Virus record (IMG/VR): IMGVR_UViG_3300022723_000184
Location: 32,001 to 96,000 of that record
From: a virus
Taxonomy: Duplodnaviria; Caudoviricetes
Length of the DNA stretch: 64,000 bases
Reading direction: 5' to 3' (one strand)
Below are positions 1,809 to 32,238 of the stretch, piece by piece (position 1 is the stretch's first letter; every line of letters starts with the position of its first letter). A program made the position numbers and the translations under genes. The notes under the pieces were generated by a model. That model ran no database searches and was not told the origin of the DNA. It saw nothing but the letters and a program-made list of their open reading frames with translations.

Positions 1809-4800
1809 GTGACGACCATCTCGAACAACCTGTTCGACCAGGACCCTGCCAACTCGATCCTCCCGGATCCGAGTTTTCCACAGCCCGTCCCCAAACCGGC
1901 TCCTCAGGAGGAAGAGCCGGAAATGCGGCGTTTTGGCGACCCGATTGCCACACGCCGCGCCATTTACGACAGGGTTTTCCAGGCGGCCCAGGAGATGGAG
2001 CCGGTCGTGGGCCAGACCCACACGCTGCGACTGTCCAACCTCAACTGGGCGGATCCCGAGGAATACTCCAAGCGGAAGCGGAAGGAAGCGATCCTCTCCG
2101 GCCAGACGCTTGGTCGCCGTCTTCGCGGGACCTGGGAGTTGGTCAACAACGAGACCGGTGAGGTCCAGGACCGCACGGACAAGACGGTCGCTCGCATCCC
2201 TTACGTGACGGGCAGCGGGACGTTCGTCCACCGGGGCAACGAGTACGCGATCAAGAACCAGCAGCGGCTGCGGGCCGGCGTGTTTACCCGGGTCAAGGAC
2301 AACGGGGAGGTCGAGGCCCACGCCAACATCCTCCGCGGCGGCCCGAGCCACCGGTACTTCCTGGACCCGGCCAAGGGTGTGTTCTACATGCGCCTCGGCC
2401 AGGCCAAGATCCCAATGATGCCCCTGCTCAAGGCGATGGGTGCGACCGACGCCCAGCTGCGTGAGGCTTGGGGCCCGGAGATCCACGCCGCCAACTACGG
2501 GGCCAACGACGCCAGCGCCCTGGTCAAGCTCAAGGAGAAGATCCTCAAGGACCGCTCGGCGAAGCAGGAGGAACTGGTCTCGGCCTTCAACCAGATGGAG
2601 CTGGACCCGGAGGTCACGCAGCGGACGCTGGGCCAGCCGTACGAGAACATGGGCCTCGACACGCTGCTCGACACGTCCAAGAAGCTGCTGGCGGTCAGCC
2701 GGCAGGAGGCAGACGTCGACGACCGCGACCACCTGGCCTACCAGACGTTCCTGGGTCCCGAGGATCTGCTCGCCGAGCGGATCCGCAAGGACCGGGGCGG
2801 CGTCCGCCGCAAGCTGCTGTGGAAGCTGGCCCGAGAGGGCAACCTGAGCAAGTTGCCGGCCGCCGTGCTCCAGGACCAGGTGGACAGCGCCCTGCTCGAA
2901 TCGGGCCTGGGTCAGGCCCTCGAAGAGATCAACCCGGCCGAGGTCTTCGACAAGCAGACCCAGATCAGCCGGATGGGTGAGGGCGGCATCCCGTCGCTGC
3001 AGGCGGTGCCCGACGAGGCCCGCGGCGTACAGCCCAGCCACATGGGCTTCATGGACCCGCTGCGCACCCCCGAGTGTTACGACGAGCAGACGGAGGTCAT
3101 GACGAAGCAGGGATGGAAACCGTGGCCTTCCGTTACCGAGAGTGATGAGTTCGCTTGTCTGGTGGACGGTCGTCTGGAGTTTCATCTCGCAGACAAACTG
3201 GTGTCGTACCGGTACGTCGGGCAGATGTGTGGCGCGAAGACAGCCTTGGTCGACTACCTGGTCACGCCGGACCACCGCATGTACGTTCGCCGCGGTTACG
3301 ATACACCTCACTGGCGGATCGAGACGGCGAACGAGACGCATGAGGCTCATGTTCGGATTTTGAAATGCGGCGGCCACTCGCCTTACGTCGGGATGGCGTT
3401 CGATCCCGGTCTACCTGTCTTTGAGTCGCGGTCGAACAACAGCAAGGCGATCGACCTGGCGACCACGGACCCGTGCGACTGGGCGGAGTTTGTCGGGTGG
3501 TACCTGTCGGAAGGCAACTTGGCTGTTTCCGAGTCTAGACAGTCTTATAAGGTCATGATCACTCAGAGCCCGGAAGCGAACCCGGAGAACCATACCCGGA
3601 TCCGGGACTTGTTGGATCGTCTACCGTTCGACTGGTCTTTCTGTAACCACGAGAAAGCATTTGTCGTGAGCCGCCGCCACCTTTATGAGTGGGCCAAACC
3701 GCTAGGAAAGTGTGACGACAAATTCATTCCCGCTCGTTGCTTCGATTGGCCCGAGGAAGCTCGTCGATCGTTGTTGGAGGGTCTGTTACTGGGCGACGGC
3801 CGTAAGGCAGTTAAAGGCGGCAGAGTGGGCCGGCCCACACAGTACTGTTCGACTAGCCGCAGGCTGGCTTATGACGTTCAGAGGCTGTTGTTCACCCTTG
3901 GTGTCTCGTCCCGGGTGGTATTCGAGCCGGACGAACGGGAGGATCACTATCTCGGATGCTGGGTCGTGCATATCCACGCGAGAACGCAGCGGCGAGTTGG
4001 TCGTGCTCATGCAGCTAAAGAAAGCGATTTCCACCTGGAGAGTTACGACGGTCATGTCTACTGCGCTTCTGTTCCTGGTGGGCTTTTGTACGTGCGTCGC
4101 AACGAGAGCTGCGGCATTTGGTGCGGCAACAGCTTCCGGGTCGGTGTCGACGTGCACCTGGCCCGCAATGCCCGCAAGGGGCGTGACGGCAAGCTCTACG
4201 CCCAGTTCCGTGACGCCCGGTCGGGCAAGGACGTGTGGCGCACGCCGCAGGACGTCGCCGACCTGGCCGTGGCGTTCCCCGGCTCCATGAAGTCGGAGGC
4301 CAGGCGGGTGCCGGCCATGAAGAACGGCCGGATCCGGTGGGTGCCCAAGGAGAAGGTTGACCTGGTGCTCAGCACCTTCGAGAACGCCTTCAGCCCGTTG
4401 GGCAACATGGTCCCGCTCAAGAGCATGGTGAAGGGCCAGCGGGTGGCGATGGCCAGCCGGATGAGCGTAACGGGTGACGCCTGGGTTGTAGTGCTGCGAA
4501 AATCTGGTGACGCCTATTACGGCCCGATACGAGATTACGTGTGGAGGAAAGGCGACAAGTCTCCGTCTATCGATAAGGTTACGCACCGGCTGGTGTGGAA
4601 ACCGGTGCGAGCTAAGCTAGTACACCGGAACACGAAACGTCTTATGCGGGTGACGGTTGATAGCGGTAGGAGCTTTGTTGCTACTGAGGATCACAGTTGC
4701 GTTACGCTAGGTAAATCTGGACGTCTTGAAAAGATTAAAACCGGTGATTTATCTAAAGGCCTACCCGTTCCTTATGCCGCGACGCTTGATTGCCCCGAGA

Positions 4801-7800
4801 CGTACCAGAAAACGTGGAATGTGCCGAACGGAAACAAGCACAACGCCCATCCGGGTGTCGCGTTTCCGTTAACACGGGATGTAGGCTGGTTTTTGGGGTT
4901 GTACGTTGCCGAGGGTTACGGGGTCGGCAAAGATGCTCGCGCTGTGGCGCTTGCTAACATCTCTCCCGAAGTGCAGACCAGGGTTTGCCGGTTTATGGCT
5001 GACATTGGTTTGTGCGTGAAGCCGTCTTCCGGCAGCGACGGGGTGAACGACCGGGTTGTTATCAACTGGCTGCAGTTATACAGAAAGTTGCGAGAGGATT
5101 TCGGGGACGGGGCTTATAACAAAAGGCTTCCCGCCTGGGTGCATTTTTCGCCGAAAGCGTTCCGGGAAGGTCTGTTGTCGGGATACATGGCTGGCGATGG
5201 GATCGTATCGAAACCAGTAGCCCGTTCAACAACAACCGGCGGCGGCAGCCGCAGCCTGGACCTGGTCAACGGGTTGACGCTTCTTTGTGCGTCACTCGGT
5301 ATTTCAACGTCTGTGTCCTCGCCCTGGGTTAATACCGGCCCGGGAGGATCCCGGGTGCAACAACACAAGTTCACGATACGTAAAGAGCACCAACATCTAC
5401 TCCCCGTGATCGGCCACCCGGAAAAAGACAAAAAAATGCAACGGTCGTCGTGGTCGGGCAAGCGGTCTTACGACTGGATACCGATTTTCGACGACCTTAG
5501 ACCTATGTTTAATCGGCGAACGCAGCGTCGCGACAACCGCCGCCGGCGGCTGGATAACCGTTATATGGGTCGCTTGGATCGCCGCGACGTAATCGACTTA
5601 TTTGGGGATGACGCGGAGTGGGCTACCAGGGGTTGGTCGTCGTCGTCTGTCTGGTGGGATCGGGTGAAGCGGGTGGACGAAGTCAGTTCGGACCATGAAT
5701 TCGTTTATGACCTTGACATGGAAGACAACGTGTTCCTGGCCAACGGCGTGTTTGTGCACAATACAACGCAGGCCCTGCCCGTGGCTAACCCCGAGGCGCC
5801 ACTCGTCCAGTCGGCGGTTCCCGGCAGCGGCGGGGCAATCAGCTTCGAGGACGAGTACGGATCGCACATGGGTGCGGTGCGTGCCGATCAGCCCGGTCGC
5901 GTGGTGGCGGTCACCGACGACGAGATCACCGTGCAGTACGCCGACAACAGCCGGGCGAACATCGAGCTGTACAACAACCATCCGTACAACCGTAAGAGCG
6001 TGACCGGTGACACCGAGATTCTGATCCGCAGAAGGGCGGAATCTGGGCGGTCGAGGCAAGGGCTTTACATCTGGCGAGGCCCGATTCGCGAGTATCAGTG
6101 GCGAGACGACGACTACGTCCTTTCGGTGTGTCCGAAAACGAAGCAGTCTGCGTGGAAGAAGGTCATCGCGAAAACGGCTCATCCCAACGACAAACGTCTG
6201 TTGCGGGTGAAGACAGCGTCCGGCCGTCATGTTGTGGTGACCGAAGACCACAGCCTGGTGACGATGGGTAGCGATGGAACACTCGTGCCTATCTATCCGG
6301 ACGATTGCCAGGTCGGCAAGACACGGTTGCCTGTGGCTAAGATCCCCGAAATGGTCTCGTCGAAGACGTATCCGGGCAAGTCTCGTAACGACGGTCGCGT
6401 GGTCGGCCTATACCTTGCGGAAGGGCACTGCCCGCCCAGTCAGCCAAACCTGGTGACGATTTCGGTTGAGCCGGACGATCGGGCAGAGACGGTACTGGCT
6501 TTGTTGAGAACCGTTTCGGAGGGCTACGAGCCGTTCCGAAACGGCGGTACCGTTTGTATGACGGCGCCGAAACTGGTCAAGAGGTTGGTGAAACAGTTCG
6601 GACACCGGTCACACAACAAGAAGATCCCGTCGCGATTCCTTCGGTACCCAGCCGAGTTCCGAGAAGGACTGGTCGAAGGGTACATGGGTGGCGACGGTTG
6701 CTTTTGGAAGGACGGAAACGGCGGGACTAATTTGGAGGCGACCAGTGTTTCGCGGGAGCTTCGGGACAACCTCGTCGACCTGCTGCTGTCGTTGGACGTG
6801 TTCACGACGCTGAAGACGTCGCCAAGGAAAAAGTACAAGGATGCGTGGCGGGACGGGTATCGCTTCCGCGTCTTGTCCGGGGAGCTACACAAGCTGCCCC
6901 GATGGTTCGTGTACGACGATCGAGAGGAACGGTTGAACGAATCCATCGATTCGCAGTACCGAGCTTCCGTGTACGAGATGGTTCCGGTCCCCGATAAAGA
7001 AGCCAGGACGCTCGTCTATGCCGGCTTCGACAAGACGCCGCTGCAAGGAAAAGTTGCCAAGCACAGGCTGGCCGGATCCAAAAGCGTGTTCGGCAAGTGG
7101 GGTGTCTCTGACGTCATGTGGGATGAGATCGTGGCGATCGAATCGGCGGACCACGAAGAGGAGGTCTACGACCTTTCCGTGCAAGACTCGGAGATGTTCG
7201 CTGTTTGTCACGGCCTGGTCGTACACAACACATACATCCATCAGACGCCGACGGTCCGGCCTGGCCAGTCCTTCAAGGCCGGAGACCTGCTTGCCCGGTC
7301 GAACTACACCAACGACCAGGGCGCGACGGCCCTGGGCGTCAACGCCCGCGTTGCTTACGTGCCGTGGGGCGGCAAGAACTTTGAAGACGCCATCGTGATC
7401 TCGGACTCCATGGCCAAGCGGTTGAGTTCCGAGCACATGTACCAGCACGACCTTGAGATCAGCGCCCGGACCCGCACTGGCAAGAACACCTACCTCTCGC
7501 TGTTCCCCGGCAAGTACGACAAGAAGACCCTGGAAAACATGGACGCTGACGGCGTCGTCAAACCAGGCACAGTCGTGCAACACGGGGATCCGCTAATCCT
7601 GGCTGCCGAAGAGCGGAGCCGGGCGCTGAACAAGGTTCACAAGAAGCGTCAGCCTGGCTTCCAAGACAACAGCATCACGTGGAAGCATCACGACGAAGGC
7701 GTGGTGACCGATGTGGTGAAGACCAAGAACGGCCCGGTCGTCTTGGTCAAGGGCCGGCAGGAGATGAAGGTCGGCGACAAGATGTGTTACGACCCGGAGA

Positions 7801-8831
7801 CTAGCCTACTCACGCGGCAAGGTTGGAAGCCTGTTGCGGAGGTTACGCTCGACGACGAGTTGGCGACGCTGAACCCGGAAACGGAAGAACTGGAGTACCA
7901 CAAACCAACTCACGTGCACTCGTTTGCTCACACGGGGGAGATGTACTACCTGAATACCAAGCACCTCAACATGCTGGTGACGCCGGAGCATCGCTTGTGG
8001 GTTGCTCGTCCGGGCCAGACCTACGGCGAGGTGACGGCTAAAGACTTCTACGAGTCGAAGGGCGAATGGCAGTTCAAGAAAGACTGCAAGTGGGTTGGCG
8101 AAGAACGCTTGTTGATGGAGTTCGAGCCGTACATCGCGAGGAACAGTCGAGAGCAAGTCCTGGAATCTGTACCCATGGACATTTGGCTCAGGTTCATCGG
8201 GTATTACCTGTCAGAGGGTCGAACTTGTCGTACTTCGAGCGGCGGGTATCAGGTGCAGATCAGCCAGTTCCGAACGTCTTCGGTTTGGGAGGACATTCAC
8301 GACACGCTGGTCGAGCTTGGTCTGCGTTTCTCGTACCGAGAAAACGAAAATAGGTTTGAGATCAACTCCAAGTGGTTGTACGGGGTGTTGCTGCCGTTGG
8401 GCAGCGATGCGTACTCGAAGCGAGTGCCGGAATACGTACAAGAACTGTGCTCTCGCCAGATCTCCGTCTTGTTCGATTCTTACATGGAAGGAGACGGACA
8501 TAAGGGGGCGTGCTGGGAGTTTGGAACGTCGAGCGAGCAGTTGGCTTTCGACCTTCAAGTGTTGTGTTTGAAGTTGGGCTGGTGTGTCAAGTTGAAGCCC
8601 GTCGACCGTGAAGACAACCTTCAAAAGAACCCTCACTGGCGGGGCCGAGTTAATCGTTCTCATCTGCGGCCTTGGTGGAAGAAAGGGCAGGCAAAGACCT
8701 ACGCGTCCAACGAAGAGAAGATGGTGCAGTACGACGGCGAGGTCTACTGCGTGACAGTTCCCAATCACATCGTTTATTGCAAGAGGGAGGACAAAACGTA
8801 CTGGTCGCTGAACAGCGGCCGGTACGGCTAG
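1809..8831 (+). CDS. rpoB: Phage multi-subunit RNA polymerase beta subunit, N-terminal ~800 extein aa plus 4 inteins; ends at an in-frame TAG inside the GRxGxKG motif
   Basis: Beta motifs after removing inteins: FVHRGNEYAIKNQQRLRAG, HMGFMDPLRTPE|S, AMASRM|TTQALP, NRK|TYIHQTP..GDLLA, GVNARVAYVPWGGKNFEDAIVIS, MKVGDKM|SGRYG. Confidence 0.92.
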   Translation: MTTISNNLFDQDPANSILPDPSFPQPVPKPAPQEEEPEMRRFGDPIATRRAIYDRVFQAAQEMEPVVGQTHTLRLSNLNWADPEEYSKRKRKEAILSGQTLGRRLRGTWELVNNETGEVQDRTDKTVARIPYVTGSGTFVHRGNEYAIKNQQRLRAGVFTRVKDNGEVEAHANILRGGPSHRYFLDPAKGVFYMRLGQAKIPMMPLLKAMGATDAQLREAWGPEIHAANYGANDASALVKLKEKILKDRSAKQEELVSAFNQMELDPEVTQRTLGQPYENMGLDTLLDTSKKLLAVSRQEADVDDRDHLAYQTFLGPEDLLAERIRKDRGGVRRKLLWKLAREGNLSKLPAAVLQDQVDSALLESGLGQALEEINPAEVFDKQTQISRMGEGGIPSLQAVPDEARGVQPSHMGFMDPLRTPECYDEQTEVMTKQGWKPWPSVTESDEFACLVDGRLEFHLADKLVSYRYVGQMCGAKTALVDYLVTPDHRMYVRRGYDTPHWRIETANETHEAHVRILKCGGHSPYVGMAFDPGLPVFESRSNNSKAIDLATTDPCDWAEFVGWYLSEGNLAVSESRQSYKVMITQSPEANPENHTRIRDLLDRLPFDWSFCNHEKAFVVSRRHLYEWAKPLGKCDDKFIPARCFDWPEEARRSLLEGLLLGDGRKAVKGGRVGRPTQYCSTSRRLAYDVQRLLFTLGVSSRVVFEPDEREDHYLGCWVVHIHARTQRRVGRAHAAKESDFHLESYDGHVYCASVPGGLLYVRRNESCGIWCGNSFRVGVDVHLARNARKGRDGKLYAQFRDARSGKDVWRTPQDVADLAVAFPGSMKSEARRVPAMKNGRIRWVPKEKVDLVLSTFENAFSPLGNMVPLKSMVKGQRVAMASRMSVTGDAWVVVLRKSGDAYYGPIRDYVWRKGDKSPSIDKVTHRLVWKPVRAKLVHRNTKRLMRVTVDSGRSFVATEDHSCVTLGKSGRLEKIKTGDLSKGLPVPYAATLDCPETYQKTWNVPNGNKHNAHPGVAFPLTRDVGWFLGLYVAEGYGVGKDARAVALANISPEVQTRVCRFMADIGLCVKPSSGSDGVNDRVVINWLQLYRKLREDFGDGAYNKRLPAWVHFSPKAFREGLLSGYMAGDGIVSKPVARSTTTGGGSRSLDLVNGLTLLCASLGISTSVSSPWVNTGPGGSRVQQHKFTIRKEHQHLLPVIGHPEKDKKMQRSSWSGKRSYDWIPIFDDLRPMFNRRTQRRDNRRRRLDNRYMGRLDRRDVIDLFGDDAEWATRGWSSSSVWWDRVKRVDEVSSDHEFVYDLDMEDNVFLANGVFVHNTTQALPVANPEAPLVQSAVPGSGGAISFEDEYGSHMGAVRADQPGRVVAVTDDEITVQYADNSRANIELYNNHPYNRKSVTGDTEILIRRRAESGRSRQGLYIWRGPIREYQWRDDDYVLSVCPKTKQSAWKKVIAKTAHPNDKRLLRVKTASGRHVVVTEDHSLVTMGSDGTLVPIYPDDCQVGKTRLPVAKIPEMVSSKTYPGKSRNDGRVVGLYLAEGHCPPSQPNLVTISVEPDDRAETVLALLRTVSEGYEPFRNGGTVCMTAPKLVKRLVKQFGHRSHNKKIPSRFLRYPAEFREGLVEGYMGGDGCFWKDGNGGTNLEATSVSRELRDNLVDLLLSLDVFTTLKTSPRKKYKDAWRDGYRFRVLSGELHKLPRWFVYDDREERLNESIDSQYRASVYEMVPVPDKEARTLVYAGFDKTPLQGKVAKHRLAGSKSVFGKWGVSDVMWDEIVAIESADHEEEVYDLSVQDSEMFAVCHGLVVHNTYIHQTPTVRPGQSFKAGDLLARSNYTNDQGATALGVNARVAYVPWGGKNFEDAIVISDSMAKRLSSEHMYQHDLEISARTRTGKNTYLSLFPGKYDKKTLENMDADGVVKPGTVVQHGDPLILAAEERSRALNKVHKKRQPGFQDNSITWKHHDEGVVTDVVKTKNGPVVLVKGRQEMKVGDKMCYDPETSLLTRQGWKPVAEVTLDDELATLNPETEELEYHKPTHVHSFAHTGEMYYLNTKHLNMLVTPEHRLWVARPGQTYGEVTAKDFYESKGEWQFKKDCKWVGEERLLMEFEPYIARNSREQVLESVPMDIWLRFIGYYLSEGRTCRTSSGGYQVQISQFRTSSVWEDIHDTLVELGLRFSYRENENRFEINSKWLYGVLLPLGSDAYSKRVPEYVQELCSRQISVLFDSYMEGDGHKGACWEFGTSSEQLAFDLQVLCLKLGWCVKLKPVDREDNLQKNPHWRGRVNRSHLRPWWKKGQAKTYASNEEKMVQYDGEVYCVTVPNHIVYCKREDKTYWSLNSGRYG
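3075..4130 (+). mobile_element. Intein 1 in beta (352 aa, LAGLIDADG)
   Basis: CYDEQTEV...WCGN followed by +1 Ser; motifs GWYLSEG and GLLLGDG; more AT-rich than flanks. Confidence 0.9.
4464..5762 (+). mobile_element. Intein 2 in beta (433 aa, Ser1, LAGLIDADG)
   Basis: SVTGDAWV...VYDLDMEDNVFLANGVFVHN followed by +1 Thr; motifs GLYVAEG and GYMAGDG. Confidence 0.9.
5997..7229 (+). mobile_element. Intein 3 in beta (411 aa, Ser1, LAGLIDADG)
   Basis: SVTGDTEI...VYDLSVQDSEMFAVCHGLVVHN followed by +1 Thr; motifs GLYLAEG and GYMGGDG. Confidence 0.9.
7785..8813 (+). mobile_element. Intein 4 in beta (343 aa, LAGLIDADG)
   Basis: CYDPETSL...VYCVTVPNHIVYCKREDKTYWSLN followed by +1 Ser, inside GDKM|SGRYG; motifs GYYLSEG and SYMEGDG. 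Confidence 0.9.
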
Positions 8832-8833
8832 GT

Positions 8834-11800
8834 GATAAAGGAGTTGTTGCCGCGATCATCCCCGACAACCAGATGCCCCACGACAAAGCGGGCAGCCCGT
8901 ACGAGGTGCTGCTCAACCCCCTTGGGGTCATCAGCCGCTGTTACGACGAGCAGACTGAGTTCTTGACGGATCGAGGCTGGGTGTTTGGTCGTGACGTTCA
9001 TCAAGACGACCAGTTCGTTTGCTACCACGTCTGGACCGAGAACCTGTACACAATGCCACAGTTGGAGAAGTTTCACGTTGCGGACTACACAGGCAAAATG
9101 CTGAAGTTTGAGAACAAGCTCATGGACTTCTGCGTCACGCCGAATCACCGCATGTGGGCTGCTTGTGGATACCCCGGCGCGCCATGGCAGGAAGTGACGG
9201 CCGAGCGAATTTTCGACCGAAACGGGTGGAAGGTGCCTGTGGCCGGAAACCCGGTACCCGGTGAAGATCGGGACTTCGTGTTGCCGCAGATCGAGCGCCA
9301 CGTGAAGGATACGCAGTCGTCTGTAGAAGAAATTGTGATTGAAGCCGGGGACTGGGCCGAGTTCCTTGGTTGGTACGTGGCCGAAGGTAACGCCGACGAG
9401 AAAGTCCACATCTCTCAGAGTATCGAGGCTAATCCGGAAAACTGTAGCCGGATCGAGGAGCTGTTGAATCGCCTTCCGTTCGCCTGGAACTACAACGCGA
9501 AGAACACGCAGTTCCACATCACATCGAAGCGTCTTTGTGAGCACCTGAAACCGTTGGGGCTGTGTGATGAGAAGCACGTCCCGGACTGGGTCTTCTCGCA
9601 GAGCCCAGAGACACGGCAGCGGTTCCTAGATAGCTATCTGGCCGGTGACGGCGACAAAGATCAGACGAACAGAGACCATGCGTATTGGGGCGCCGGTACA
9701 ACGTCAAAACAGTTGGCGCAGGACCTCCAGCGACTGCTTATCTACCAAGGCTATTCGGCGAATACGTCGAAGCAGCCTTCGGGTATGTGGCGGGTCGGTA
9801 TTCACGCTAAACGGCACCGAATCTTGGAGAAACAGAACTGGGCCGAAGTTGACTACGACGGTAAGATCTATTGCCCGACGGTGCCAACCGGGTACATCGT
9901 GACTCGCCGCAACGGAAAGGTTTTGATCGCGGGCAACACCAACCCGGCCCAGATGGTGGAGGCCGCGTTGGGCAAGCTCGCCAAGCACCGCGGCCAGCCG
10001 ATCAAGGTCGAGGACTTCGACGAGAACATCGAGGACATGACTGAGTGGGCCAGGGATCAGCTGCGTAAGGCGGGGCTCTCGGACACCGAGGACATTGTCG
10101 ACCCTAGCACCGACAAGAAGATCAAGGGGATCAACACCGGCAACCGCTTCTTCATGAAGCTGCACCACACGGCGGAATGTTTTGACGATCAAACCGAGGT
10201 ACTTACAAAGCGAGGGTGGGTCTCGTGGGTTGATGCGCGAGACGATGATGAGTTCGCGACGCTTGATGGCGGCGACCTTGTTTATGAGCAGGCCGAGCGG
10301 GTAGTTCGCAGCGAGTACTACGGGCAATTGTGTTGTTTTGAGGGCAGATACCTTGACTATGCCGTTACCCCGAATCACCGACTCTGGTTGAAATCTTATA
10401 ACTGGCAAAAGGAGTGGGGGTTTCGCGAGGCCGGTGAGGTTCATGGGCGGCGGTTCTCTGTGCAACAATTCGGTCCCTCGGCGGCAGGTAACAATCCCGC
10501 AACCACTAAGATCGGCGATGACGACGTGGATTGGGATGATTACGCGGAGCTTGTTGGGTGGTGGGTCACTGAGGGGTACGCCAAGGTTACGCGTCGCCGG
10601 GCCTGCGTGATGATCTATCAAAGTGAATCCGCGAACCCGGAAAAACTTGCTAGGATTGAGGAGCTTGTGGCTCGTTTGCCGTGGCCCTGGCATTATTACA
10701 AAGTAAAAGGCGAGATTTTCGGTGTTGGCATTAGTAGTAGGGCACTTGCTGAGCATTTGAAGCAGTACGGAACACATTCACACAATAAGCGCTTACCGCG
10801 GCATCTCCTTGAGGGAGGATTGACCGGGCGACAGCGACTATTCGCGTCGATGATGGATGGCGACGGCAATCGGCAGACCACGCCGACTGGAAACATGGAA
10901 AGATTCACGACGACCTCTAAGGGGTTGGCAGATGATTTTCAGGAGTTGTGTGTTCGATCCGGATTCGGTGCGGTTATCCGCCCGGTTAAGCCGAGGAAAG
11001 AGACGCATTATTTGCCTGCGTGGACTTGCGGCGTCGCGTTGTCGCGAACAACCGCCCAGATCGACGGTGACCGCAATCTGGGCGGGTTCTCCCTTCGCAT
11101 GTACAAAGGCGTTGTTTATTGCGCAACGATGCGAACGGGGATGCTATATGTTCGGCGTAACGGTAAGCCGATGTGGAGCGGTAACTCCAAAGGACAGGGA
11201 CGTGGATCCGGAGGTTATACGGCTGAGGATGCACCGGCGAAGGGCGGCGAGACGGGCAGCAAGAGAATTGCGCTGCTCGATGTTAACGCCCTCCTCTCCC
11301 ACGGCGCTACAGAGGTTCTTCGGGATGCTTCTGCGATTCGCGGGCAGAAAAACGAAGACTACTGGCTGCAGTTCATGCAGGGCTACACACCTAAGCAGCC
11401 GAAGGTCCCGCTCGTCTACGAGAAGTTCGTCAACGAGCTGAAGGGCGCCGGGATCAACGTGGTGCGTGACGGGACGCAGACCAACATCATGGCGCTGACC
11501 GATGACGACATCGATCAGCTGGCCGGCGACCGCACGATCAAGTCGGGCGAGACCGTCCACTTCGACAAGGACCTCAAGCCGATCCCGGGCGGCCTGTTCG
11601 ACCCGGCGGTGACCGGCGGTCACCACGGTCGGCGGTGGGCCGCGATCAAGCTGGCCGAGCCCATGCCCAACCCGGTGATGGAAGAGCCGATCCGTCGAGT
11701 GCTCGGGCTGACTGGCAAGAAGTTCCAGGACATTATCGCGGGCAAGGACACGCTGCCCCGTTACGGCACCGGGCTGCGGGCGATTTCCGAGGCACTCGAA

Positions 11801-12877: not shown

Positions 12878-12880
12878 TGC

Positions 12881-12909
12881 TTCACTCGCCTAAAGTTGTG
12901 AGGTACACT
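12881..12909 (+). promoter_or_regulatory. Possible sigma70-type promoter TTCACT-17-TACACT
   Basis: Intergenic, canonical spacing, upstream of the CACGGAAGG RBS of the 12937 gene. Confidence 0.4.
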
Positions 12910-12936
12910 GACAGGATCACCACGGAAGGGCCCAAC

Positions 12937-13605: not shown

Positions 13606-13868
13606 TCGTCGAAATCATCAGCGACGGCAAACCGCTACGCATCCCGGCGAGTCAGTTGGTCGTCTTTGACGACAACGGCACGCCGATTTGCGTTGCGGGC
13701 GAGTACGGGCCGGACGGTGCGTACAAGGTCTCGCACGCGGCCGACGAAGACTTCAACCAAAGCCTGCGTGCCTTCGGGGTTGGAAGGCACCAGGTCGTCA
13801 CAGATTTCCTAGAGCCACCTCCCGTTCCCGGCGGGGCGAGGCCGCTTACAGGACCATCGAAAGGATGA
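13602..13868 (+). CDS. Hypothetical protein, 88 aa
   Basis: GTGA overlap with the upstream gene and ATGA overlap with the downstream gene. Confidence 0.7.
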   Translation: MIVEIISDGKPLRIPASQLVVFDDNGTPICVAGEYGPDGAYKVSHAADEDFNQSLRAFGVGRHQVVTDFLEPPPVPGGARPLTGPSKG

Positions 13869-14794: not shown

Positions 14795-14840
14795 GCAGGC
14801 ATTGCGCCCGGTCAGTATAACTTCAAAAGTACTTTTTGAA
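14773..14840 (+). repeat. Direct repeat copy 1 (CTCATC-N9-GATGAG inverted repeat plus TTCAAAAGTACTTTTTGAA box)
   Basis: Aligns with 21583-21652. Confidence 0.85.
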
Positions 14841-14857
14841 TCGGGGCACGGAGGCCC

Positions 14858-17800
14858 ATGAAGGCGACGGTCGGTCAACTTCTGGTGAACGACGCACTCC
14901 CGGAGGACATGCGGGACTACCAAATGGTCCTCGACAAAAAGGGTGTGCGGAATCTCATGGCCGACCTGGCCCGTAAGCACCCGGAGGATTACCGGGAGGT
15001 CAGCCACAAGCTCTCACAGATCGGTTGGCGTTCGGCCCAGGAATCCGGCGGCTACAGCTTCGGCTTGGAGCACATGCTCAAAAGCAAGACCGGCCGAGAG
15101 ACCCGCCAACGCATCCAGAAAAAGATCAACGAGATCCTCGCCGACGACCGGCTCACCGACGAGCAGCGTGAGCAGCTGATCCTCAAGCACATCGGCAAGG
15201 AACGCGAGGCCATGCAGTCGGGGATCTTCGACGAGGCCCGCGCCGCGAAGAACCCGCTGGCCATGCAGGTGTTGGGCTCGGGCCGCGGCAACCCGATGAA
15301 CCTGTCGAGCCTGTTGGGCTCGGACCTGCTGTACACCGACCAGCGTGACCGGCTGATTCCGATCCCCGTGCTCCGCAGTTACAGCGAGGGCCTGAGCCCC
15401 GCCGAGTACTGGGCCGGGACCTACGGCGCCCGCAAGGGCGTGATGTGTTTGGCTAAAGGAACTCAGGTGCTGATGGCCGATTACACGGACAAGCCGATCG
15501 AGAAGGTGAAACCTGGTGACTGGGTGATGGGATCTGATCGTCAAGGGCGGATGACGCCTGTGAGGGTTATCCGTCGTTACTACAACGGTGTGCAGCCTTG
15601 CTACCGCTACCGATTTCGCAAAAATAGTTGCCGTTTGCCGTCCTCGCATCGAACACTCGTGGCGACCGAAAAGCATAAGGTCCTTGCCACCGTAAAAGCC
15701 GGACGACCCGGTTCAACCTATGCACACCGGTCAATCTACGTCCCGACACCATTACCGCTTGAAGCGGCGCGTCTGCTTAAAAATCCAGTAAAGAATGAAT
15801 ACGTGGCGACGCCGGCGGCCGGGGAGGCGGGCGAGCAGTCCCGAGTGCGAGAACCGTCGGCCTTGTTGTATGGGTTGATGCTCGGCGACGGGTGTATGGC
15901 AGAATCGACCCGTGGGCGGTATTTGTTGTCGTGCAATGACCCGCTCCTTTTGGACGACCTGCGTGAGTACATCTCATTGTTCGACGTGTTTTTGGACAAA
16001 GCAGGCGGTGATAATTACAACTATACGCTGGCGGGCGATGGGGGGGCTGCGGTTGCGGTCGATTTGAAGACGCGTCTCGGCGAGAAATTGGCCCACGATA
16101 AGGAGCTTCCAGAGGGTTGTTTCGCATGGGACGATGTTTCGGTTGGTCAGTTGCTCGGAGGATTGTTTTCCACCGACGGCTCGATTACTGGCCGAAACGG
16201 TAACGCAACAATTAAGTTGACACTTTCTTCCCGGCGTATGGTGGAACAAGTGCAACGACTGTTGGAACTCCGGTTGGGTATATGGTCCGGCGGGCTGATC
16301 TTCACAGCTAAAGAAAAGAAGAAGAACGCAACGCACGACCAATGGGGTTTTGCGGTGTCACACGCTGCGTCGGTTGCCAGGTTTTTCGCGCGGGTCCCCT
16401 TGTACGGCAAGAAGAGGGTTCAGGCGAAGCGTATCGCGGCTACCATGAAACCGGACCACTCAAACGGGTCACCGGGGTTTAAGATCTACGATCGAGAACC
16501 GGCTGGCGAAATTGCTACATATGATTTGGAGGTTGATCACCCAGACCACCTGTTTGTGCTTTCTAGCGGCCTGGTCGTGTCCAACAGCACGAAGTTCGCC
16601 ACCCAGGAGGCGGGCTTCCTCTCTAAGCAGCTCAACCAGATGGGCCACCGCCTGGTGGTCACAGATGAGGACGGGGACGGCGAGCCCGATTCGCTCCGCG
16701 GCCTGCCGGTGGATGTCGACGACCCGGACTCCGCGGGAAGCCTGCTGGCCCACGACGCCGGCGGCTACAAGCGGAATACGGTGATCACGCCCAAGATCCT
16801 GCACAACCTTCGCCGCCAAGGTCTCAAGCGGATACTGGTCCGCAGCCCCACGGTCGGTGGTAGCCCTGAGGGTGGTATCTACAGCCGTGACGCCGGCGTC
16901 CGCGAGAAGGGCGGGCTCCCGGGTCGCGGCGAGAACATCGGCCTGGCCGCTGCCCAGGCGTTGTGTTTGTCTGGAGGGACGAGAGTCCAGATGGCCAACG
17001 GAGAGGTCAAAGCGGTGGAGGACGTTAAGCCCGGAGATGTAGTTCTGGGATGCAGTGTCGACGGGGTGTTGCGGCCTGTTCCTGTGCTTGACGCTTGTTT
17101 CAGCGGCATTAAATCGTGTGTGAAGGCCCTGTTCAGGCGGGGCACGGGTAAGGCCGCCAAAGACAATCTGCTAGAGCTGGTCGCGACTCCAGAGCACAAA
17201 ATACTCTCCGAGATTGTTGTTCGTTCGGGTAGGGGTTCGGTAAAACGTGTTCCTTACTTCGATCCGGTTGCCGTTCGCCCGCTCGGAACCAAAATCCCAC
17301 ATGAAAAGCGATCAGGGGGCGATCGGTTCTGCGCTAAACTGGCGTCGTCCTTTGACGATACCGGGCTTGGTGTTCAACCTTTAGCTTTTCTTTTGGGTCT
17401 GGTAATCGGTGATGGTTGCTATAGCGGATCAGCGAACTGCGTAGGGTTCAGCTGTTATGATCCGGTGCTCGCCGCTGACGTCGGTGCGTATCTCAAGCCG
17501 TTGAACTTCGAGATCAAAAACAACACGGATAACGAGTACCGCGTTGTCGATACAACGCACCGCCAAGTGAAGCGACGCGAAGATGGTAGCTGGTATCGCA
17601 GCCGTCTTATTGAGCTGCTTCGTGTCGAGGGAATGTTCGGGCAGACGAGCAGTATTAAGACTTTGCCGAAGTCCGTGCACTCGTGGGATAACGCGTCTGT
17701 GGCTGCGCTGATCGCCGGTCTGCTCGTAACGGACGGGTACGTGATATCGACGGGCGGTTTGGGGTTCGGATCGAACTCTAAGTGCTTGCTGGATGGCGTT

Positions 17801-20800
17801 CGGCAGCTTCTAGGGTTGCGGTGGGGCGTCTGGGGTTCGTCGGTTATATCTTCCACGAAGAAGCGTGCTGATGGTGATGAGTACGCCCCTAACTGGCGGT
17901 TTACGGTTAATCGCAGAGACGATGTTAATCTTCTTCGTTCTATTCTTCCTGTCGCTGGCGTGAAACGTGGTCGGCTAGACTCGCTGTTATCGAAGTGGAA
18001 CTCGAAACGGCGTTCGGCAAGAGGCGCGCCTAGAGTCAAGGGTCGGTGTACTCGTATTTCATTGGAACGGGTCGGCGAGTTGCCGACATACGACCTGTAC
18101 ATCGCACACCCTGATCACCTTTTCGTGTTGGCCAACGGACTGGTTGTTTCCAACTCCGAGCCCCTGAGTCAGGCTCAGCTTTGCCTTGCAGCAGGGACTC
18201 TAGTGCGGATGGCCGACTGGACGGTGAAACGGATCGAGCAGGTCCGGGCTGACGAACAAATCATGGGAGCCGACAAATCCGGGCGGCTGTTTCCGGTGCG
18301 CGTTGTCCGGGTCTACGACAACGGAGAGCGGGAGTGTGTTCGGACGGTATTCCGGGAAGCCAAAACGAAGCAACACGTCGATCTGGTCAGCACCGGAGAC
18401 CACAAACTCTTGTCCAAGACAAGGCATTGGGCGATACCGTCCGAGCGAGTGGAACACGGCGTGTTTCCGGTCGCCCGGAAATGTGTTGGCTACTCGGCCA
18501 AGATGCCGTTCGCGGTCGTAAACGATCACGGCTGTGCAGAACCGTTTGCCGGCCTGTGCGGTCTGCTGCTGGGTGATGGAGGGTATACTGTCAGCGTTCA
18601 CGGGGTTCACTGGTCTTGTTTCGAGCCGGACCTGGTGGAAGAGATGCAGCCTTACCTGGCAGGACTGGGTTTGAAGGCTACGAAGCTCCAAGGGCACGAA
18701 GGGCACGAAGGCTATTACCGAATCAGCCAGGTCGAAGACGCGATTCGGCAAGACCCGGAGACCGGACGAGTGCTGCCCGGAGACCGTAATCCGGCACTGA
18801 TCTGGTTGAAGCAGCACCGGATGTACGGCAAGTACGCACACGAGAAAGAGATTCCCGAGGAGATTTGGAGTTGGGACCAAAACTCGGTTGCACGATTGCT
18901 GGGCTGCCTGTTTGCGACAGACGGTAGCGTTTATCCGCCGACGCAGCGACCCGATGAACTCTATATCAACTTCAGCTCAACTTCTTTGGAGCTTGCGAAG
19001 CAGGTCAAGGAACTAATTCAGGTCCGCTTTGCGATTCATAGCTCGTCGATCGGAAGCCACAAGGGAAAACGCAAGCGGAAGCTTTATTCGTTCACGATCA
19101 CCCGCAAAGAACAGGTCAGACGGTTCGCGTCTCGGATCGCGGTTCCGGCGCGTAAAGGACAGATGCTGGCCGACTATCTGCCAAAACTCCAGGAAGACGA
19201 GTCCACCGAGTATTTCCATCGCCAGCGGCAGGAACCCGTGGGCACGGTTGCGACATACGATCTCGAAGTCGACCATCCGGACCATCTTTTCGTGCTGGCC
19301 AACGGTCTGATTGTTTCTAACTCGGCCAAGCACTCGGGCGGCGTGGCCGGCAGCGAGAAGGCGGTCTCCGGGTTCGACTACATCAACCAGCTGATCCAGG
19401 TGCCCAAGAAGTTCAAGGGTGGTGCGGCCCATGCCCAGGTCGACGGCATCGTGAGCCGGATCGAAGAGGCTCCGGCCGGTGGCAAGTACGTCGTGATCAA
19501 TAACGAGAAGCACTACGTCGGTCCGGACTTCTCGTTGAAGGTTAAGCGAGGCGACGAGATTGAGGCGGGCGACGTCCTGAGCGAGGGCATCCCGAACCCG
19601 TCGGAGGTCGTGCGCCACAAGGGCGTTGGCGAAGGTCGGCGGTACTTCACCCAGGCCTTCCGCCAGGCGATGCATGAAGCTGGGATACACGCCAGCCGCC
19701 GCAACGTGGAACTGTTGGGTCGGGGCCTGATCGACCATGTGCGGATGACGGATGAGTACGATCAGTACGTCCCGGACGATGTGGTACCCTACAGTGCACT
19801 GGAGCACCGGTGGCAACCCCGGGAAGGGAGCCGCCGGGTCCCGTACAAGCAGGCGGTTGGCAAGTACCTGGAGCGTCCGGTCCTCCACTACACGATCGGC
19901 ACGAAGATCCGGAAATCGATGCTCAAGGACTTCGAGGACTTCGGGGTCGAGGAGCTGGAGACCCATGACGAGCCGCCGCCGTTCGAGCCCGAGATGATCC
20001 GGGGCATGTACTCGGTCCAACACGATCCCGACTGGATGACCAGGATGTACGGCTCAGGCCAGAAGAAGAGCTTGCTGAGTGCCGTGCACCGTGGCGGGAC
20101 CAGTGACGAGCTGGGCACCTCGTTCGTCCCGGGCCTGGCCCGTGGCGTCGACTTCGGCCGGCAGGGCCTGGTCACGCCGCCCGCCCCACCCCAGAAGATG
20201 GGCAGCGACATGCAGAAGGAAGCGGAGGGCATGTGGGGAACCGGGGCCATCCCGGGCTCACCCAACTTCAACCTGCAGCAGCAGGCCCGCCAGTCGTACA
20301 ACGTCGGCAACAGCATGCTCAGCAGTATGCGTGGCGGCGGTGGCGTGGGTCCGGCAACGGCCGGCGACGCCAACCGGTTCCGACAGTACCTCTCGTCTTT
20401 CGCCGCTGCCCCCGGCCCCACCGGGGCACCTGCCGGTCAGGCTGCTGCGTCCGTGGCCCGCCCGGCGGCTGCTACGGCCGGCAGTGCCGCGACCGGCAAC
20501 GGCCTGACCACCGCCGACTGGCACGCGTGGAGTGCTGGACCGATGGGGGCGGGCGCCGCGACCAAGGCCGGGACCCGTCCGCTGGCCGCTGCTGCCCTGC
20601 GGTACGCACCGGCCGTGGCCAAGGCCCCGGGCATCCGCAACCTGGTGGGCGCTATGGCCCGGCCCTCGGCCGCCGCCCAGGCGTTGAGCGGGGTGAAGCC
20701 GCAGATGCCGGGCACCGTCTCGAAGTGGCTGCGGCCCGGCTACCACCAGTACGCGACCAAGGTCCTGGGTCAGTCCCACAACCTGGCTCAGGGTGCCGGC

Positions 20801-21604
20801 AAGTTCGGGCGGTTCGCGGGCAAGGCTGGGCGACTCGCTGGTCCGTTGGGCCTGGCGGTCGCCCCGCTGGAGTTCGGGATCCGTGGCGGCAGCGAGCTTT
20901 ACGACATGGCCACGGGTCAGGACACCTTCGGGAACATGGTCGACCAGCGGCTGCGGGACGCTGGCAACTGGCAGGGGCCGACGGGTTATGCGGGCGCCGT
21001 GCTCAACACACCGTTCAGTCCGTCGAGCGTGGCGGCCTTGGGCAAAGCCAAATACGACCTGGCGATGGCCCCCATCCAATCGTTTGCCCAACGACGCCAA
21101 TCGCTGGCCGCGGGCAACCGGCTCAACGAGCAGCTGGCCGAGAACCGCGAGGCGGCGGGTGGCGTCGACGAGCTGCTGCAGCACGCTCCGAAGGACATCG
21201 CCAGCCGGTACGCCCGGAAATACGTGGACGACACGCCCTGGTACGGTCTGGGCGGGTTCAATCCGTTCGTGAACGATCAGGGCCGCATGACGTGGGTCGA
21301 CAAGGGGACCGGCGAGGAAGCTGGTTCCGGGGCCATGCAGGCGATCGAGCAGGTCAAACAGCAGAACCAAGATCGTGAAGCGGCACAGGAGGCCGCGAGG
21401 TACGCGAGGCAAAAACCGCAGCAGGCCGCGGTGGTCCAGGCGAAACCGGCTGCTCCGGCACCCGCTCAAGAGGCCCGTGCGGCGTCGCTCCTCGGCAACC
21501 CGATCTACCGACAAGTGCTCAGCCAGGTCAGCGCCCAGAGCCCGGAAATGGGAGCGATGCTCCTGCTGTCAGGTGCCGATCCGTCTCATCTTATGGGCCG
21601 ATGA
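14858..21604 (+). CDS. rpoC: RNAP beta' C-terminal half with 3 inteins and a ~460-aa Ala/Gly-rich C-terminal extension
   Basis: GSGRGNPMNL, SYSEGLSPAEYW, YGARKGVM|STKFATQEAGFLSKQL (bridge helix), ILVRSP, NIGLAAAQAL|SEPLSQAQL|SAKHSGG (trigger loop), GDVLSEG; RBS CACGGAGG. Confidence 0.92.
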   Translation: MKATVGQLLVNDALPEDMRDYQMVLDKKGVRNLMADLARKHPEDYREVSHKLSQIGWRSAQESGGYSFGLEHMLKSKTGRETRQRIQKKINEILADDRLTDEQREQLILKHIGKEREAMQSGIFDEARAAKNPLAMQVLGSGRGNPMNLSSLLGSDLLYTDQRDRLIPIPVLRSYSEGLSPAEYWAGTYGARKGVMCLAKGTQVLMADYTDKPIEKVKPGDWVMGSDRQGRMTPVRVIRRYYNGVQPCYRYRFRKNSCRLPSSHRTLVATEKHKVLATVKAGRPGSTYAHRSIYVPTPLPLEAARLLKNPVKNEYVATPAAGEAGEQSRVREPSALLYGLMLGDGCMAESTRGRYLLSCNDPLLLDDLREYISLFDVFLDKAGGDNYNYTLAGDGGAAVAVDLKTRLGEKLAHDKELPEGCFAWDDVSVGQLLGGLFSTDGSITGRNGNATIKLTLSSRRMVEQVQRLLELRLGIWSGGLIFTAKEKKKNATHDQWGFAVSHAASVARFFARVPLYGKKRVQAKRIAATMKPDHSNGSPGFKIYDREPAGEIATYDLEVDHPDHLFVLSSGLVVSNSTKFATQEAGFLSKQLNQMGHRLVVTDEDGDGEPDSLRGLPVDVDDPDSAGSLLAHDAGGYKRNTVITPKILHNLRRQGLKRILVRSPTVGGSPEGGIYSRDAGVREKGGLPGRGENIGLAAAQALCLSGGTRVQMANGEVKAVEDVKPGDVVLGCSVDGVLRPVPVLDACFSGIKSCVKALFRRGTGKAAKDNLLELVATPEHKILSEIVVRSGRGSVKRVPYFDPVAVRPLGTKIPHEKRSGGDRFCAKLASSFDDTGLGVQPLAFLLGLVIGDGCYSGSANCVGFSCYDPVLAADVGAYLKPLNFEIKNNTDNEYRVVDTTHRQVKRREDGSWYRSRLIELLRVEGMFGQTSSIKTLPKSVHSWDNASVAALIAGLLVTDGYVISTGGLGFGSNSKCLLDGVRQLLGLRWGVWGSSVISSTKKRADGDEYAPNWRFTVNRRDDVNLLRSILPVAGVKRGRLDSLLSKWNSKRRSARGAPRVKGRCTRISLERVGELPTYDLYIAHPDHLFVLANGLVVSNSEPLSQAQLCLAAGTLVRMADWTVKRIEQVRADEQIMGADKSGRLFPVRVVRVYDNGERECVRTVFREAKTKQHVDLVSTGDHKLLSKTRHWAIPSERVEHGVFPVARKCVGYSAKMPFAVVNDHGCAEPFAGLCGLLLGDGGYTVSVHGVHWSCFEPDLVEEMQPYLAGLGLKATKLQGHEGHEGYYRISQVEDAIRQDPETGRVLPGDRNPALIWLKQHRMYGKYAHEKEIPEEIWSWDQNSVARLLGCLFATDGSVYPPTQRPDELYINFSSTSLELAKQVKELIQVRFAIHSSSIGSHKGKRKRKLYSFTITRKEQVRRFASRIAVPARKGQMLADYLPKLQEDESTEYFHRQRQEPVGTVATYDLEVDHPDHLFVLANGLIVSNSAKHSGGVAGSEKAVSGFDYINQLIQVPKKFKGGAAHAQVDGIVSRIEEAPAGGKYVVINNEKHYVGPDFSLKVKRGDEIEAGDVLSEGIPNPSEVVRHKGVGEGRRYFTQAFRQAMHEAGIHASRRNVELLGRGLIDHVRMTDEYDQYVPDDVVPYSALEHRWQPREGSRRVPYKQAVGKYLERPVLHYTIGTKIRKSMLKDFEDFGVEELETHDEPPPFEPEMIRGMYSVQHDPDWMTRMYGSGQKKSLLSAVHRGGTSDELGTSFVPGLARGVDFGRQGLVTPPAPPQKMGSDMQKEAEGMWGTGAIPGSPNFNLQQQARQSYNVGNSMLSSMRGGGGVGPATAGDANRFRQYLSSFAAAPGPTGAPAGQAAASVARPAAATAGSAATGNGLTTADWHAWSAGPMGAGAATKAGTRPLAAAALRYAPAVAKAPGIRNLVGAMARPSAAAQALSGVKPQMPGTVSKWLRPGYHQYATKVLGQSHNLAQGAGKFGRFAGKAGRLAGPLGLAVAPLEFGIRGGSELYDMATGQDTFGNMVDQRLRDAGNWQGPTGYAGAVLNTPFSPSSVAALGKAKYDLAMAPIQSFAQRRQSLAAGNRLNEQLAENREAAGGVDELLQHAPKDIASRYARKYVDDTPWYGLGGFNPFVNDQGRMTWVDKGTGEEAGSGAMQAIEQVKQQNQDREAAQEAARYARQKPQQAAVVQAKPAAPAPAQEARAASLLGNPIYRQVLSQVSAQSPEMGAMLLLSGADPSHLMGR
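15446..16585 (+). mobile_element. Intein 7 in beta'C (380 aa, LAGLIDADG)
   Basis: CLAKGTQV...TYDLEVDHPDHLFVLSSGLVVSN followed by +1 Ser; motifs GLMLGDG and GLFSTDG. Confidence 0.9.
16964..18154 (+). mobile_element. Intein 8 in beta'C (397 aa, LAGLIDADG)
   Basis: CLSGGTRV...TYDLYIAHPDHLFVLANGLVVSN followed by +1 Ser; motifs GLVIGDG and GLLVTDG. Confidence 0.9.
18182..19321 (+). mobile_element. Intein 9 in beta'C (380 aa, LAGLIDADG)
   Basis: CLAAGTLV...TYDLEVDHPDHLFVLANGLIVSN followed by +1 Ser; motifs GLLLGDG and CLFATDG. Confidence 0.9.
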
Positions 21605-21652
21605 GCAGGCATTGCGATCTCGGTCAGTGTACCCTCAAAAGCACTTTCGAAA
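21583..21652 (+). repeat. Direct repeat copy 2
   Basis: GTCTCATCTT-ATGG-GCCGATGAGCAGGCATTGCG-ATCT-CGGTCAGTGTACCCTCAAAAGCACTTTCGAA matches copy 1. Confidence 0.85.
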
Positions 21653-21686
21653 AGACGTATGCCGACGCAAAGCCCCGAAGTAGAGC

Positions 21687-32167: not shown

Positions 32168-32238
32168 TGTCCGGAACTCGTGGACACCGGCACAATCGCC
32201 GCAGGCAAGGACGACCAAAAACGAGAAGGAGTCTCACC

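Follow-up and report, generated by a model that had tools for sequence, protein, structure and literature searches.

In phages of the phiKZ type, one version of the multi-subunit RNA polymerase (RNAP) is packaged in the virion, and beta is encoded in two pieces in the non-virion enzyme or three in the virion enzyme, is never fused to beta', and belongs to two paralogous sets (PMC7598289, PMC7824862); their beta' is also cut, just after the catalytic barrel (PMC7598289). In the mReC group of uncultured tailed phages (Weinheimer & Aylward 2020), beta and beta' are alignable to COG0085 and COG0086 and stand apart from the cellular clades; gp23-type capsids (PF07068) and PF03237 terminases were reported for this group, and the paper makes no mention of split, inteins or virions and describes a fusion only for the crAssphage enzyme (PMC7481178). 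The two polymerase chains of Salmonella phage Arash are annotated simply as beta and beta', without description of a fusion (PMC10585845). Bypassing of mRNA by the ribosome, for its part, is known from T4 gene 60, with a gap of 50 nucleotides (nt), and from the synthetic stop-hops of Weiss et al. 1987 (as reviewed in PMC5009743; bioRxiv 10.1101/2022.08.31.505936). Here we describe the polymerase genes at 1809-21604 of a 64,000-nt stretch of phage DNA (the window; positions 32001-96000 of the 201,946-bp IMG/VR record IMGVR_UViG_3300022723_000184), in which a fused beta-beta'N gene carries a short interruption five codons past an intein.

Judged by its sequence, this region encodes a bacterial-type two-barrel RNAP that is of a phage, not cellular, and that is made in two chains. 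We think it probable, on the evidence taken as a whole, that this is the only RNAP of the uncultured ~202-kb phage, that one of the two chains would be joined by a hop of the ribosome, and that the enzyme is packaged, as homology with Arash suggests. The conserved interruption is the main new element here, and the intein load is a new aspect relative to the known clade.

The two polymerase chains and their relatives

The phage genome has a G+C content of ~63% and is ~90% complete (CheckV). Within the window, RNAP domains are mixed with intein and LAGLIDADG domains in three long plus-strand frames (Pfam), from which the following layout was derived:

1809-8831, plus strand: open reading frame (ORF1) of 2340 aa with Rpb2_3 and Rpb2_6 (Pfam)
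8672-12877, plus strand: ORF with the remainder of Rpb2_6, then Rpb1_1 and Rpb1_2 (Pfam)
14858-21604, plus strand: ORF of 2248 aa with Rpb1_5 (Pfam)
1809..8828, plus strand: first coding stretch of the fused chain; N-terminal part of beta, 801 extein residues, inteins 1-4
8834..12877, plus strand: second coding stretch of the fused chain; C-terminal part of beta, then beta'N, 679 extein residues, inteins 5 and 6; stop codon 12875-12877
11462..11488, plus strand: beta/beta' junction, where beta-like text ends ...AGINVVRDG and beta'-like text continues
12593..12613, plus strand: NADFDGD catalytic loop of beta', intact
14858..21604, plus strand: beta'C chain; polymerase core in extein residues 1-615, bridge helix and trigger loop included; three inteins
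20174..21601, plus strand: C-terminal tail of beta'C, 476 aa, Gly/Ala-rich and of low complexity

The matches to Rpb2_6, Rpb1_1, Rpb1_2 and Rpb1_5 in the three ORFs agree with the polymerase gene content of the original prediction. Its extein lengths of ~1479 and ~1091 aa were recomputed as 1480 aa (801 + 679) for chain 1 (beta-beta'N) without its six inteins and 1091 aa for chain 2 (beta'C) without its three; removal of the inteins restores all of the catalytic motifs. The first coding stretch ends on the Gly codon GGC at 8826-8828 (...SGRYG), and its extein text, like its matches to Rpb2_3 and Rpb2_6, runs collinear with the intein-free relative L006. In intein-free relatives the fused chain is one open frame of 1478-1490 aa. 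The ORF list places three ORFs between the fusion gene and the beta'C gene, as had been claimed. Thus the fusion and the separate beta'C gene of the proposed two-chain enzyme stand, while beta as one open frame does not, as ORF1 ends at TAG 8829-8831; because the beta frame is broken there, two chains would need a recoding event.

Beta text passes into beta' text without a stop, in a continuous frame from 8834 to 12877. The text after intein 6 (P0002 840-930) aligns pairwise to the last ~95 residues of Salmonella beta, ending ...AGINV; the piece between inteins 5 and 6 gave no pairwise alignment to beta, and a phmmer search of PDB sequences with the short C-terminal piece of beta found nothing. 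Similarity to beta' begins ~30 aa past the end of the beta-like text, with query residues 195-560 aligning to E. coli beta' 180-549, and the best bacterial chain among solved structures matches at E 1e-57. The Salmonella and E. coli alignments confirm the predicted passage of beta into beta'N near 11462-11488; the stop and frame change at 8829 nevertheless break beta before this junction, against the expectation that it would be in frame. Bacterial beta' has a Cys4 zinc element that the translation, as read by eye, lacks. Chain 1 ends ~95 residues past the NADFDGD loop, near E. coli beta' residue 552, and the beta'C gene begins near residue 575; cyanobacterial gamma extends ~65 residues beyond the cut. 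In PHROG, phrog_2987 matches the beta'N part (E 8.5e-20), and the profile ends within ~30 positions of the end of chain 1. The 476-aa tail of beta'C has no Pfam or PHROG match and is not alignable to the 660-aa tail of L006, and Arash gp216 has no tail.

Beta joined in frame to beta' is also found in the rpoBC of Helicobacter and Wolbachia, which is a cellular gene, has the whole of beta' and is accompanied by normal alpha and omega subunits; in the window, by contrast, beta' is cut after its first third. Profile searches extended the reported lack of alpha, omega and sigma from the window to the whole genome, where none was found for alpha (PF01000, PF01193), omega (PF01192) or sigma region 2. 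The D181 sigma used as a query likewise had no match in the genome, and a lone sigma70_r4 match upstream of the window was rejected as a 122-aa LuxR-type helix-turn-helix protein, not a sigma. Only one locus matches PF00562 and PF00623, and no second polymerase set was found by this Pfam search, which very divergent copies could escape. We propose that the two chains assemble into a core that lacks alpha, whose role in assembly may be taken over in part by the beta-beta' link.

The window enzyme shares with the phiKZ/AR9 type that it is a phage-encoded two-barrel enzyme without alpha, omega or sigma, with beta' cut past the catalytic barrel. The original prediction had claimed different split points; for beta' the cut is not new in kind, falling after the barrel as in the phiKZ type (PMC7598289), while the overall layout does differ, with beta fused to beta'N here and cut into two or three pieces there. 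The window beta is unsplit, its sole break being the 5-nt interruption, and the genome holds one set in place of a virion and non-virion pair. The phiKZ-type sequences are also far more divergent from bacteria than the window chain, which reaches E 1e-57 to bacterial beta'. By analogy, the enzyme may work like a phiKZ-type virion polymerase, but it fails two of the defining features of that type (split beta and two sets).

To place the enzyme, we used a tree of the beta'N region (23 rows, among them five bacteria and four archaea, with phiKZ-type subunits omitted; IQ-TREE, LG+C20). The polymerase family of the window phage and Arash/D181 form one clade with 100/99 support, and the five bacterial and four archaeal rows fall outside it; the proposed phylogeny thus puts the beta'N exteins outside the sampled bacterial clade and with these phages. 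This clade joins the phages with full-length beta' (Rhizobium Y65, Vibrio Va2 and Vibrio 1.031.O) weakly, at 85/84. On this sequence evidence we assign the window enzyme to an Arash-like clade. In Arash too (OQ632216.1), beta is fused to beta'N (gp206, 1525 aa) and beta'C is a separate chain (gp216, 606 aa); 99% of the window fusion query is covered by gp206, the beta'C core is 27% identical to gp216 over 617 aa, and the order polymerase, gp218-like, protease, capsid is the same. Arash (27-31% identity) differs from the window phage in that it lacks inteins, the interruption and a beta'C tail, carries its portal directly upstream, and encodes sigma factors, which were also found in the particle.

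Among cultured phages, similarity over the whole fusion is limited to Arash and the Vibrio phages D181, D148 and D69 (~30% identity); more than 120 metagenomic proteins are 58-81% identical to it, several of them on 210-240-kb contigs, and no DNA-level relative of the window was found among 50,697 phage records. The lineage is not new, since RNAP-encoding Caudovirales were described in 2020 (PMC7481178) and a cultured phage with the same layout and hundreds of metagenomic relatives exist. The fused-and-split layout of the Arash-like clade is present in public records; we found no description of it in the literature searched. As in mReC, the window beta and beta' align to cellular models yet lie outside the cellular clades, the bacterial sample being small. 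Unlike mReC, the window capsid is Arash-like (312 aa); PF07068 and PF03237 had no match in the ~90%-complete genome, which is a weak test because the PF07068 control was also silent.

The interruption after intein 4

The site at which the beta frame breaks has three elements:

7785..8813, plus strand: intein 4, 343 aa, ends C...LN/S, in GDKM/SGRYG of the beta active-site motif
8797..8826, plus strand: RNA hairpin, 13 bp with a GAAC loop, its 3' arm ending on the first base of the take-off Gly codon
8826..8833, plus strand: proposed stop-hop site, with take-off GGC 8826-8828, stop TAG 8829-8831 and landing GGT 8831-8833; decoding resumes at GAT 8834

ORF1 ends ...YWSLN/SGRYG-TAG, with the stop TAG (8829-8831) five codons past intein 4, and the beta text resumes 5 nt on, in another frame, with GAT AAA GGA (DKG) at 8834. 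Ten intein-less relatives read GDK[LM]SGRYGDKGV unbroken, so the five bases are extra in the window. Homologues of intein 4 occur in ~40 protein clusters, and a search with intein 4 gave 35 clusters from independent assemblies (JGI, ENA, NCBI, Logan) that end at N[SC]G[RQ]YG-stop. We recovered 11 distinct DNA junctions, gathered with an alignment query and DNA patterns; a locus search with the single intein 4 protein gave nothing, and a pattern match in L018 was dropped as a chance match. Eight inserts follow the Gly codon, TAGGT, TGAGGT, TGAGAT, TGAAGGC, TAACGAT, TGAATGGT, TAACTAGGC and TAACTAAGC, with lengths of 5, 6, 7, 8 or 9 nt, so that all three frames are covered. A stop codon stands directly after the Gly codon in every one of the junctions (TAG in one, TAA in four, TGA in six), and in eight of the 11 the codon before the resumed Asp is GGY, for which chance would give 1 in 32. 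The insertions and deletions are confined to the 5-9 nt beside the stop; the next 13 codons are in frame and conserved, with synonymous differences.

The mRNA at this site is also predicted to be structured. The hairpin has a minimum free energy of -30 kcal/mol (z -3.5), and 97.7% of cells are paired across the 11 junctions. Compensatory double changes occur at 4 of 12 pairs, for example a switch of Ser codon family (AGC>UCC with CUG>GGU) and UGG/CCG>CUG/CAG, and the covariation score was reached by none of 500 shuffles. L043, an intein-4 allele with no interruption, lacks the outer stem. In the DNA of interrupted alleles the five extein codons that follow intein 4 (AGY GGC CGG TAC GGY) are near-invariant, but they vary freely in intein-less relatives (comparison over window 8811-8845), and the resumed text favours GAT AAA GGA. 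When the intein moves, the interruption and the hairpin seem to go with it. In the intein-4 tree, whose tips reach ~1 substitution per site, the interrupted state is found throughout the clade, with two uninterrupted alleles branching from within it, which indicates that the interruption is an old and maintained element.

A programmed ribosomal stop-hop would be the simplest reading of these junctions, as one mechanism fits every variant. Both GGC and GGU are read by a Gly tRNA whose anticodon is GCC. While TAG occupies the A site, a ribosome that carries peptidyl-tRNA-Gly on GGC would slide 5 nt to the matching GGT and resume at GAT, and the product would have exactly the conserved text SGRYG-DKGVV. 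The hairpin, ending at the take-off codon, would be a likely stimulator of the hop. Several features recall T4 gene 60 and the synthetic stop-hops: the take-off codon is Gly with the stop immediately next to it, in the window and the other junctions; in eight of the 11 junctions a matched landing codon lies directly before the resumed text (GGY to GGY), the other three giving two-of-three matches; and a conserved mRNA structure, the covarying 13-bp hairpin, sits at the take-off site, as in programmed bypass. As with gene 60, the interruption is tied to a mobile homing element and the product would be identical to that of the uninterrupted gene. It differs from gene 60 in its gap (5-9 nt, not 50 nt), its gene (RNAP beta, not a topoisomerase) and its partner (an intein, not MobA), and has no sequence homology to MobA or the gene 60 cassette; it is an analogue, not a member.

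Three other causes of the frame change were considered and rejected. For a group I intron there is no Rfam match anywhere in the window, and intein 4 has both of its splice ends. A suppressor tRNA or altered genetic code does not fit a genome in which we found no tRNA genes and in which each of the three stop codons serves to terminate genes in the window. A single frameshift or readthrough would need shifts of +2, 0 and +1 at one site in different relatives, each adding 2-3 residues in an invariant motif.

Two observations count against the hop. Short stop-hops are known from synthetic E. coli constructs, with no natural in-frame one known as of a 2016 review, for which reason an efficient natural stop-hop is unproven (PMC5009743). 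In addition, three of the 11 junctions lack a cognate landing codon, having GAT, GAT and AGC, each a two-of-three match and one G>A change away. We lean only slightly towards the full proposal, namely a natural programmed 5-9-nt Gly-to-Gly stop-hop that would be driven by the hairpin, needed for the catalytic subunit of the RNAP, and mobile as a unit with a homing intein.

Alternatively, the stop at 8829 may be the true gene end, with beta made as a ~801-aa protein (...SGRYG) and a beta-C/beta'N protein starting, for example, at ATG 8873, which would give three chains without recoding. Gene callers split the gene at the stop in all relatives, variable insert lengths are as expected of an untranslated spacer, and beta splits are tolerated in the clade, where beta of Vibrio phage D181 is divided into 514 + 1006 aa by a free-standing homing endonuclease (L045:11322-16836). 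We nevertheless consider this arrangement unlikely. No in-frame ATG, GTG or TTG occurs before the Lys of the GRxG(N/D)KG motif, or indeed before codon 14 of the resumed text; the first ATG (8873), 13 codons in, has no Shine-Dalgarno sequence and is ATA in the relative L037. A start there would remove DKGVV..., including this Lys, which is an essential active-site residue in bacterial beta. The restriction of insertions and deletions to the few bases by the stop, with the following 13 codons held in frame, and the excess of GGY before Asp also argue against an untranslated spacer, and three chains would leave the covarying hairpin no role.

Inteins in the polymerase genes

Nine inteins with complete end motifs interrupt the two chains, with boundaries checked against intein-free relatives, and all of them sit in the most conserved polymerase motifs. 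In addition to intein 4 these are:

3075..4130, plus strand: intein 1, 352 aa, ends C...GN/S, LAGLIDADG type, in RTPE/SFRVG
4464..5762, plus strand: intein 2, 433 aa, ends S...HN/T, in ASRM/TTQAL
5997..7229, plus strand: intein 3, 411 aa, ends S...HN/T, in YNRK/TYIHQ
8939..9937, plus strand: intein 5, 333 aa, ends C...GN/T, in GVISR/TNPAQ
10178..11185, plus strand: intein 6, 336 aa, ends C...GN/S, in HHTAE/SKGQG
15446..16585, plus strand: intein 7, 380 aa, ends C...SN/S, in the bridge-helix text GARKGVM/STKFA
16964..18154, plus strand: intein 8, 397 aa, ends C...SN/S, in the trigger-loop text AAQAL/SEPLS
18182..19321, plus strand: intein 9, 380 aa, ends C...SN/S, nine residues past intein 8, in SQAQL/SAKHS

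Together they amount to 3365 aa against 2571 aa of extein, or 57% of the coding length, and six from chain 1 and three from chain 2 would splice out to give the mature chains. They fall into three families: inteins 1, 4, 5 and 6 (C...GN or C...LN, then S/T; 30-36% identity), inteins 2 and 3 (S...HN/T; 29% identity, E 8e-35), and inteins 7, 8 and 9 (C...SN/S; 30-32% identity). Two further inteins lie in the gene for the head maturation protease (28493-29689 and 29969-31180), bringing the window to 11.

In the relative L006 (L006:4056-10530; JGI Ga0604623_0000071, 238,853 bp; 65% identity) two genes share the coding of the fused chain and are linked by a split intein, whose N half (CFVGDTLV...) ends gene one and whose C half (...VVSN/S) starts gene two, at an insertion site 23 residues downstream of the intein 6 site of the window. 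A 547-aa ORF between the genes of the intein halves has no endonuclease or other family match (Pfam, PHROG) and is unrelated to the beta'C tail of the window. In fractured genes a free-standing gene lies between the halves of a split intein (Dassa et al. 2009, PMC2677866), and L006 resembles them in that its chain is split at intein halves with an ORF between. It differs in that its middle ORF lacks an endonuclease match, and the feature belongs to the relative, not to the window.

The head-gene neighbourhood and the virion

Downstream of the beta'C gene, genes with homologues in the head module of Arash follow:

21747-24284: gp218-like gene, tblastn homology to Arash
28274..32167, plus strand: head maturation protease, homologous to Arash gp222 and D181_0277; two inteins
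34243-34782: gp225.1-like gene, tblastn homology to Arash
34854..35792, plus strand: major capsid protein, phrog_2522 E 8e-9; 31% identity over 310 aa to Arash gp226, E 2e-36

Arash gp222 and D181_0277 match phrog_18299, "head maturation protease". In tblastn comparisons the genes for beta, beta'N, beta'C, the gp218-like protein, the protease, the gp225.1-like protein and the capsid are collinear with Arash and Vibrio phage D181. K-x-A tripeptides, which the original prediction had noted in neighbouring ORFs, are indeed enriched 2-3 times above composition in three of them (17 vs 5.7 at 21747-24284, 13 vs 3.8 at 25936-27333 and 13 vs 6.9 at 32158-33654), and could be protease sites.

By homology with Arash, the window enzyme is a candidate virion polymerase that is probably packaged in the capsid. 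In sucrose-gradient-purified Arash virions gp206 was the most-detected protein, with 3516 spectra, and gp216 had 1210 (PMC10585845); as these proteins share the layout and gene order of the window chains, their occurrence in virions supports the predicted capsid-packaged RNAP, which for the window phage itself stays an inference. The enzyme would be loaded into the head, injected, and start phage transcription independently of the host polymerase, and as the only polymerase encoded it would probably serve all phage transcription classes.

This reading has to be set against the following. The Arash preparation held 116 proteins, including many enzymes, and carry-over of abundant proteins is considered possible by its authors (PMC10585845). 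Arash and D181 share only ~30% identity with the polymerase family of the window phage, and both encode sigma factors. The tree sampled only five bacteria, with modest support for bacterial monophyly (79/87). The portal homologue, adjacent to the polymerase in Arash, is found at G000:C1:192620-194149, ~40 kb from the polymerase genes; on the side of the protease and capsid the gene order is collinear with Arash.

No feature of the sequence demonstrates packaging, and the polymerase could be real but unpackaged, made after infection for middle or late genes, with an incidental place among the head genes. The non-structural enzymes in the Arash preparation are compatible with this, as is the location of the gene among replication genes in Rhizobium Y65, Vibrio Va2 and Vibrio 1.031.O. 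As the genome has a single polymerase set and no sigma could be recognised that would redirect the host enzyme, such a polymerase would first depend on the host to transcribe its 20 kb of intein-laden genes. This difficulty, together with an order of polymerase, protease and capsid that is kept down to ~30% identity and the rank of gp206 in Arash virions, makes the unpackaged enzyme an improbable account in our estimation, on a level with the division into three chains.

Of far lower probability is that the interruption reflects an assembly error or a recent inactivating mutation, with a broken gene in this contig. A frame change in a single contig is most often an error, but here the same break point recurs in the 35 protein clusters from independent assemblies, with eight different insert sequences and intact downstream frames, and the interrupted alleles are spread over an intein tree as deep as that described above. 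Three contigs of the polymerase family (L046, L047/L059 and L048) were binned in metagenome-assembled genomes (MAGs) of Nanopelagicales, Methylococcales and Chloroflexota; they are most simply phage contigs binned with these MAGs, as each MAG has a separate cellular rpoC, and the bins are weak host hints. That the polymerase genes are bacterial DNA, which entered a viral contig by mis-assembly or was acquired recently from a host, can be dismissed with near certainty: the nearest solved structures are bacterial beta' and the three contigs sit in bacterial bins, but the cellular rpoC of each MAG is on another contig, identity to any bacterial beta' is only 31-35%, and the layout is fused and split, flanked by capsid and protease genes and placed with cultured phages at 100/99.

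Three small plus-strand ORFs between the polymerase genes (12877-13605, 13602-13868 and ~13865-14794), whose order is kept in relatives, have no Pfam or PHROG match, and Atlas gave no lead for two of them, with models of low confidence. Pfam and PHROG searches of nine neighbouring ORFs likewise found no matches. A direct repeat of ~70 nt (~85% identical; window 14770-14845 and 21580-21655) spans the stop codon and downstream spacer of the ORF preceding beta'C and of beta'C itself, and may represent a terminator or promoter element common to both, or a scar left by recombination. A second portal-like fragment of 37-44 aa lies at G000:C1:24984-25130, ~9 kb upstream of the polymerase genes.

The interruption makes it testable whether short stop-hops, known from synthetic constructs, occur in nature. 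If the proposed hop is real, this would be the first natural family of short stop-hops, and its dozens of natural sequence variants are a ready-made mutational series. Nine inteins in one enzyme represent an extreme load of homing elements on an essential gene, and an enzyme without alpha, omega or sigma in which beta is tied covalently to beta' is a natural experiment in the cohesion of the two-barrel core. The polymerase family is large and includes a cultured member in which assembly of the core could be tested. If the enzyme is injected, the family would have host-independent early transcription by a route other than that of phiKZ, N4 or crAss-like phages.

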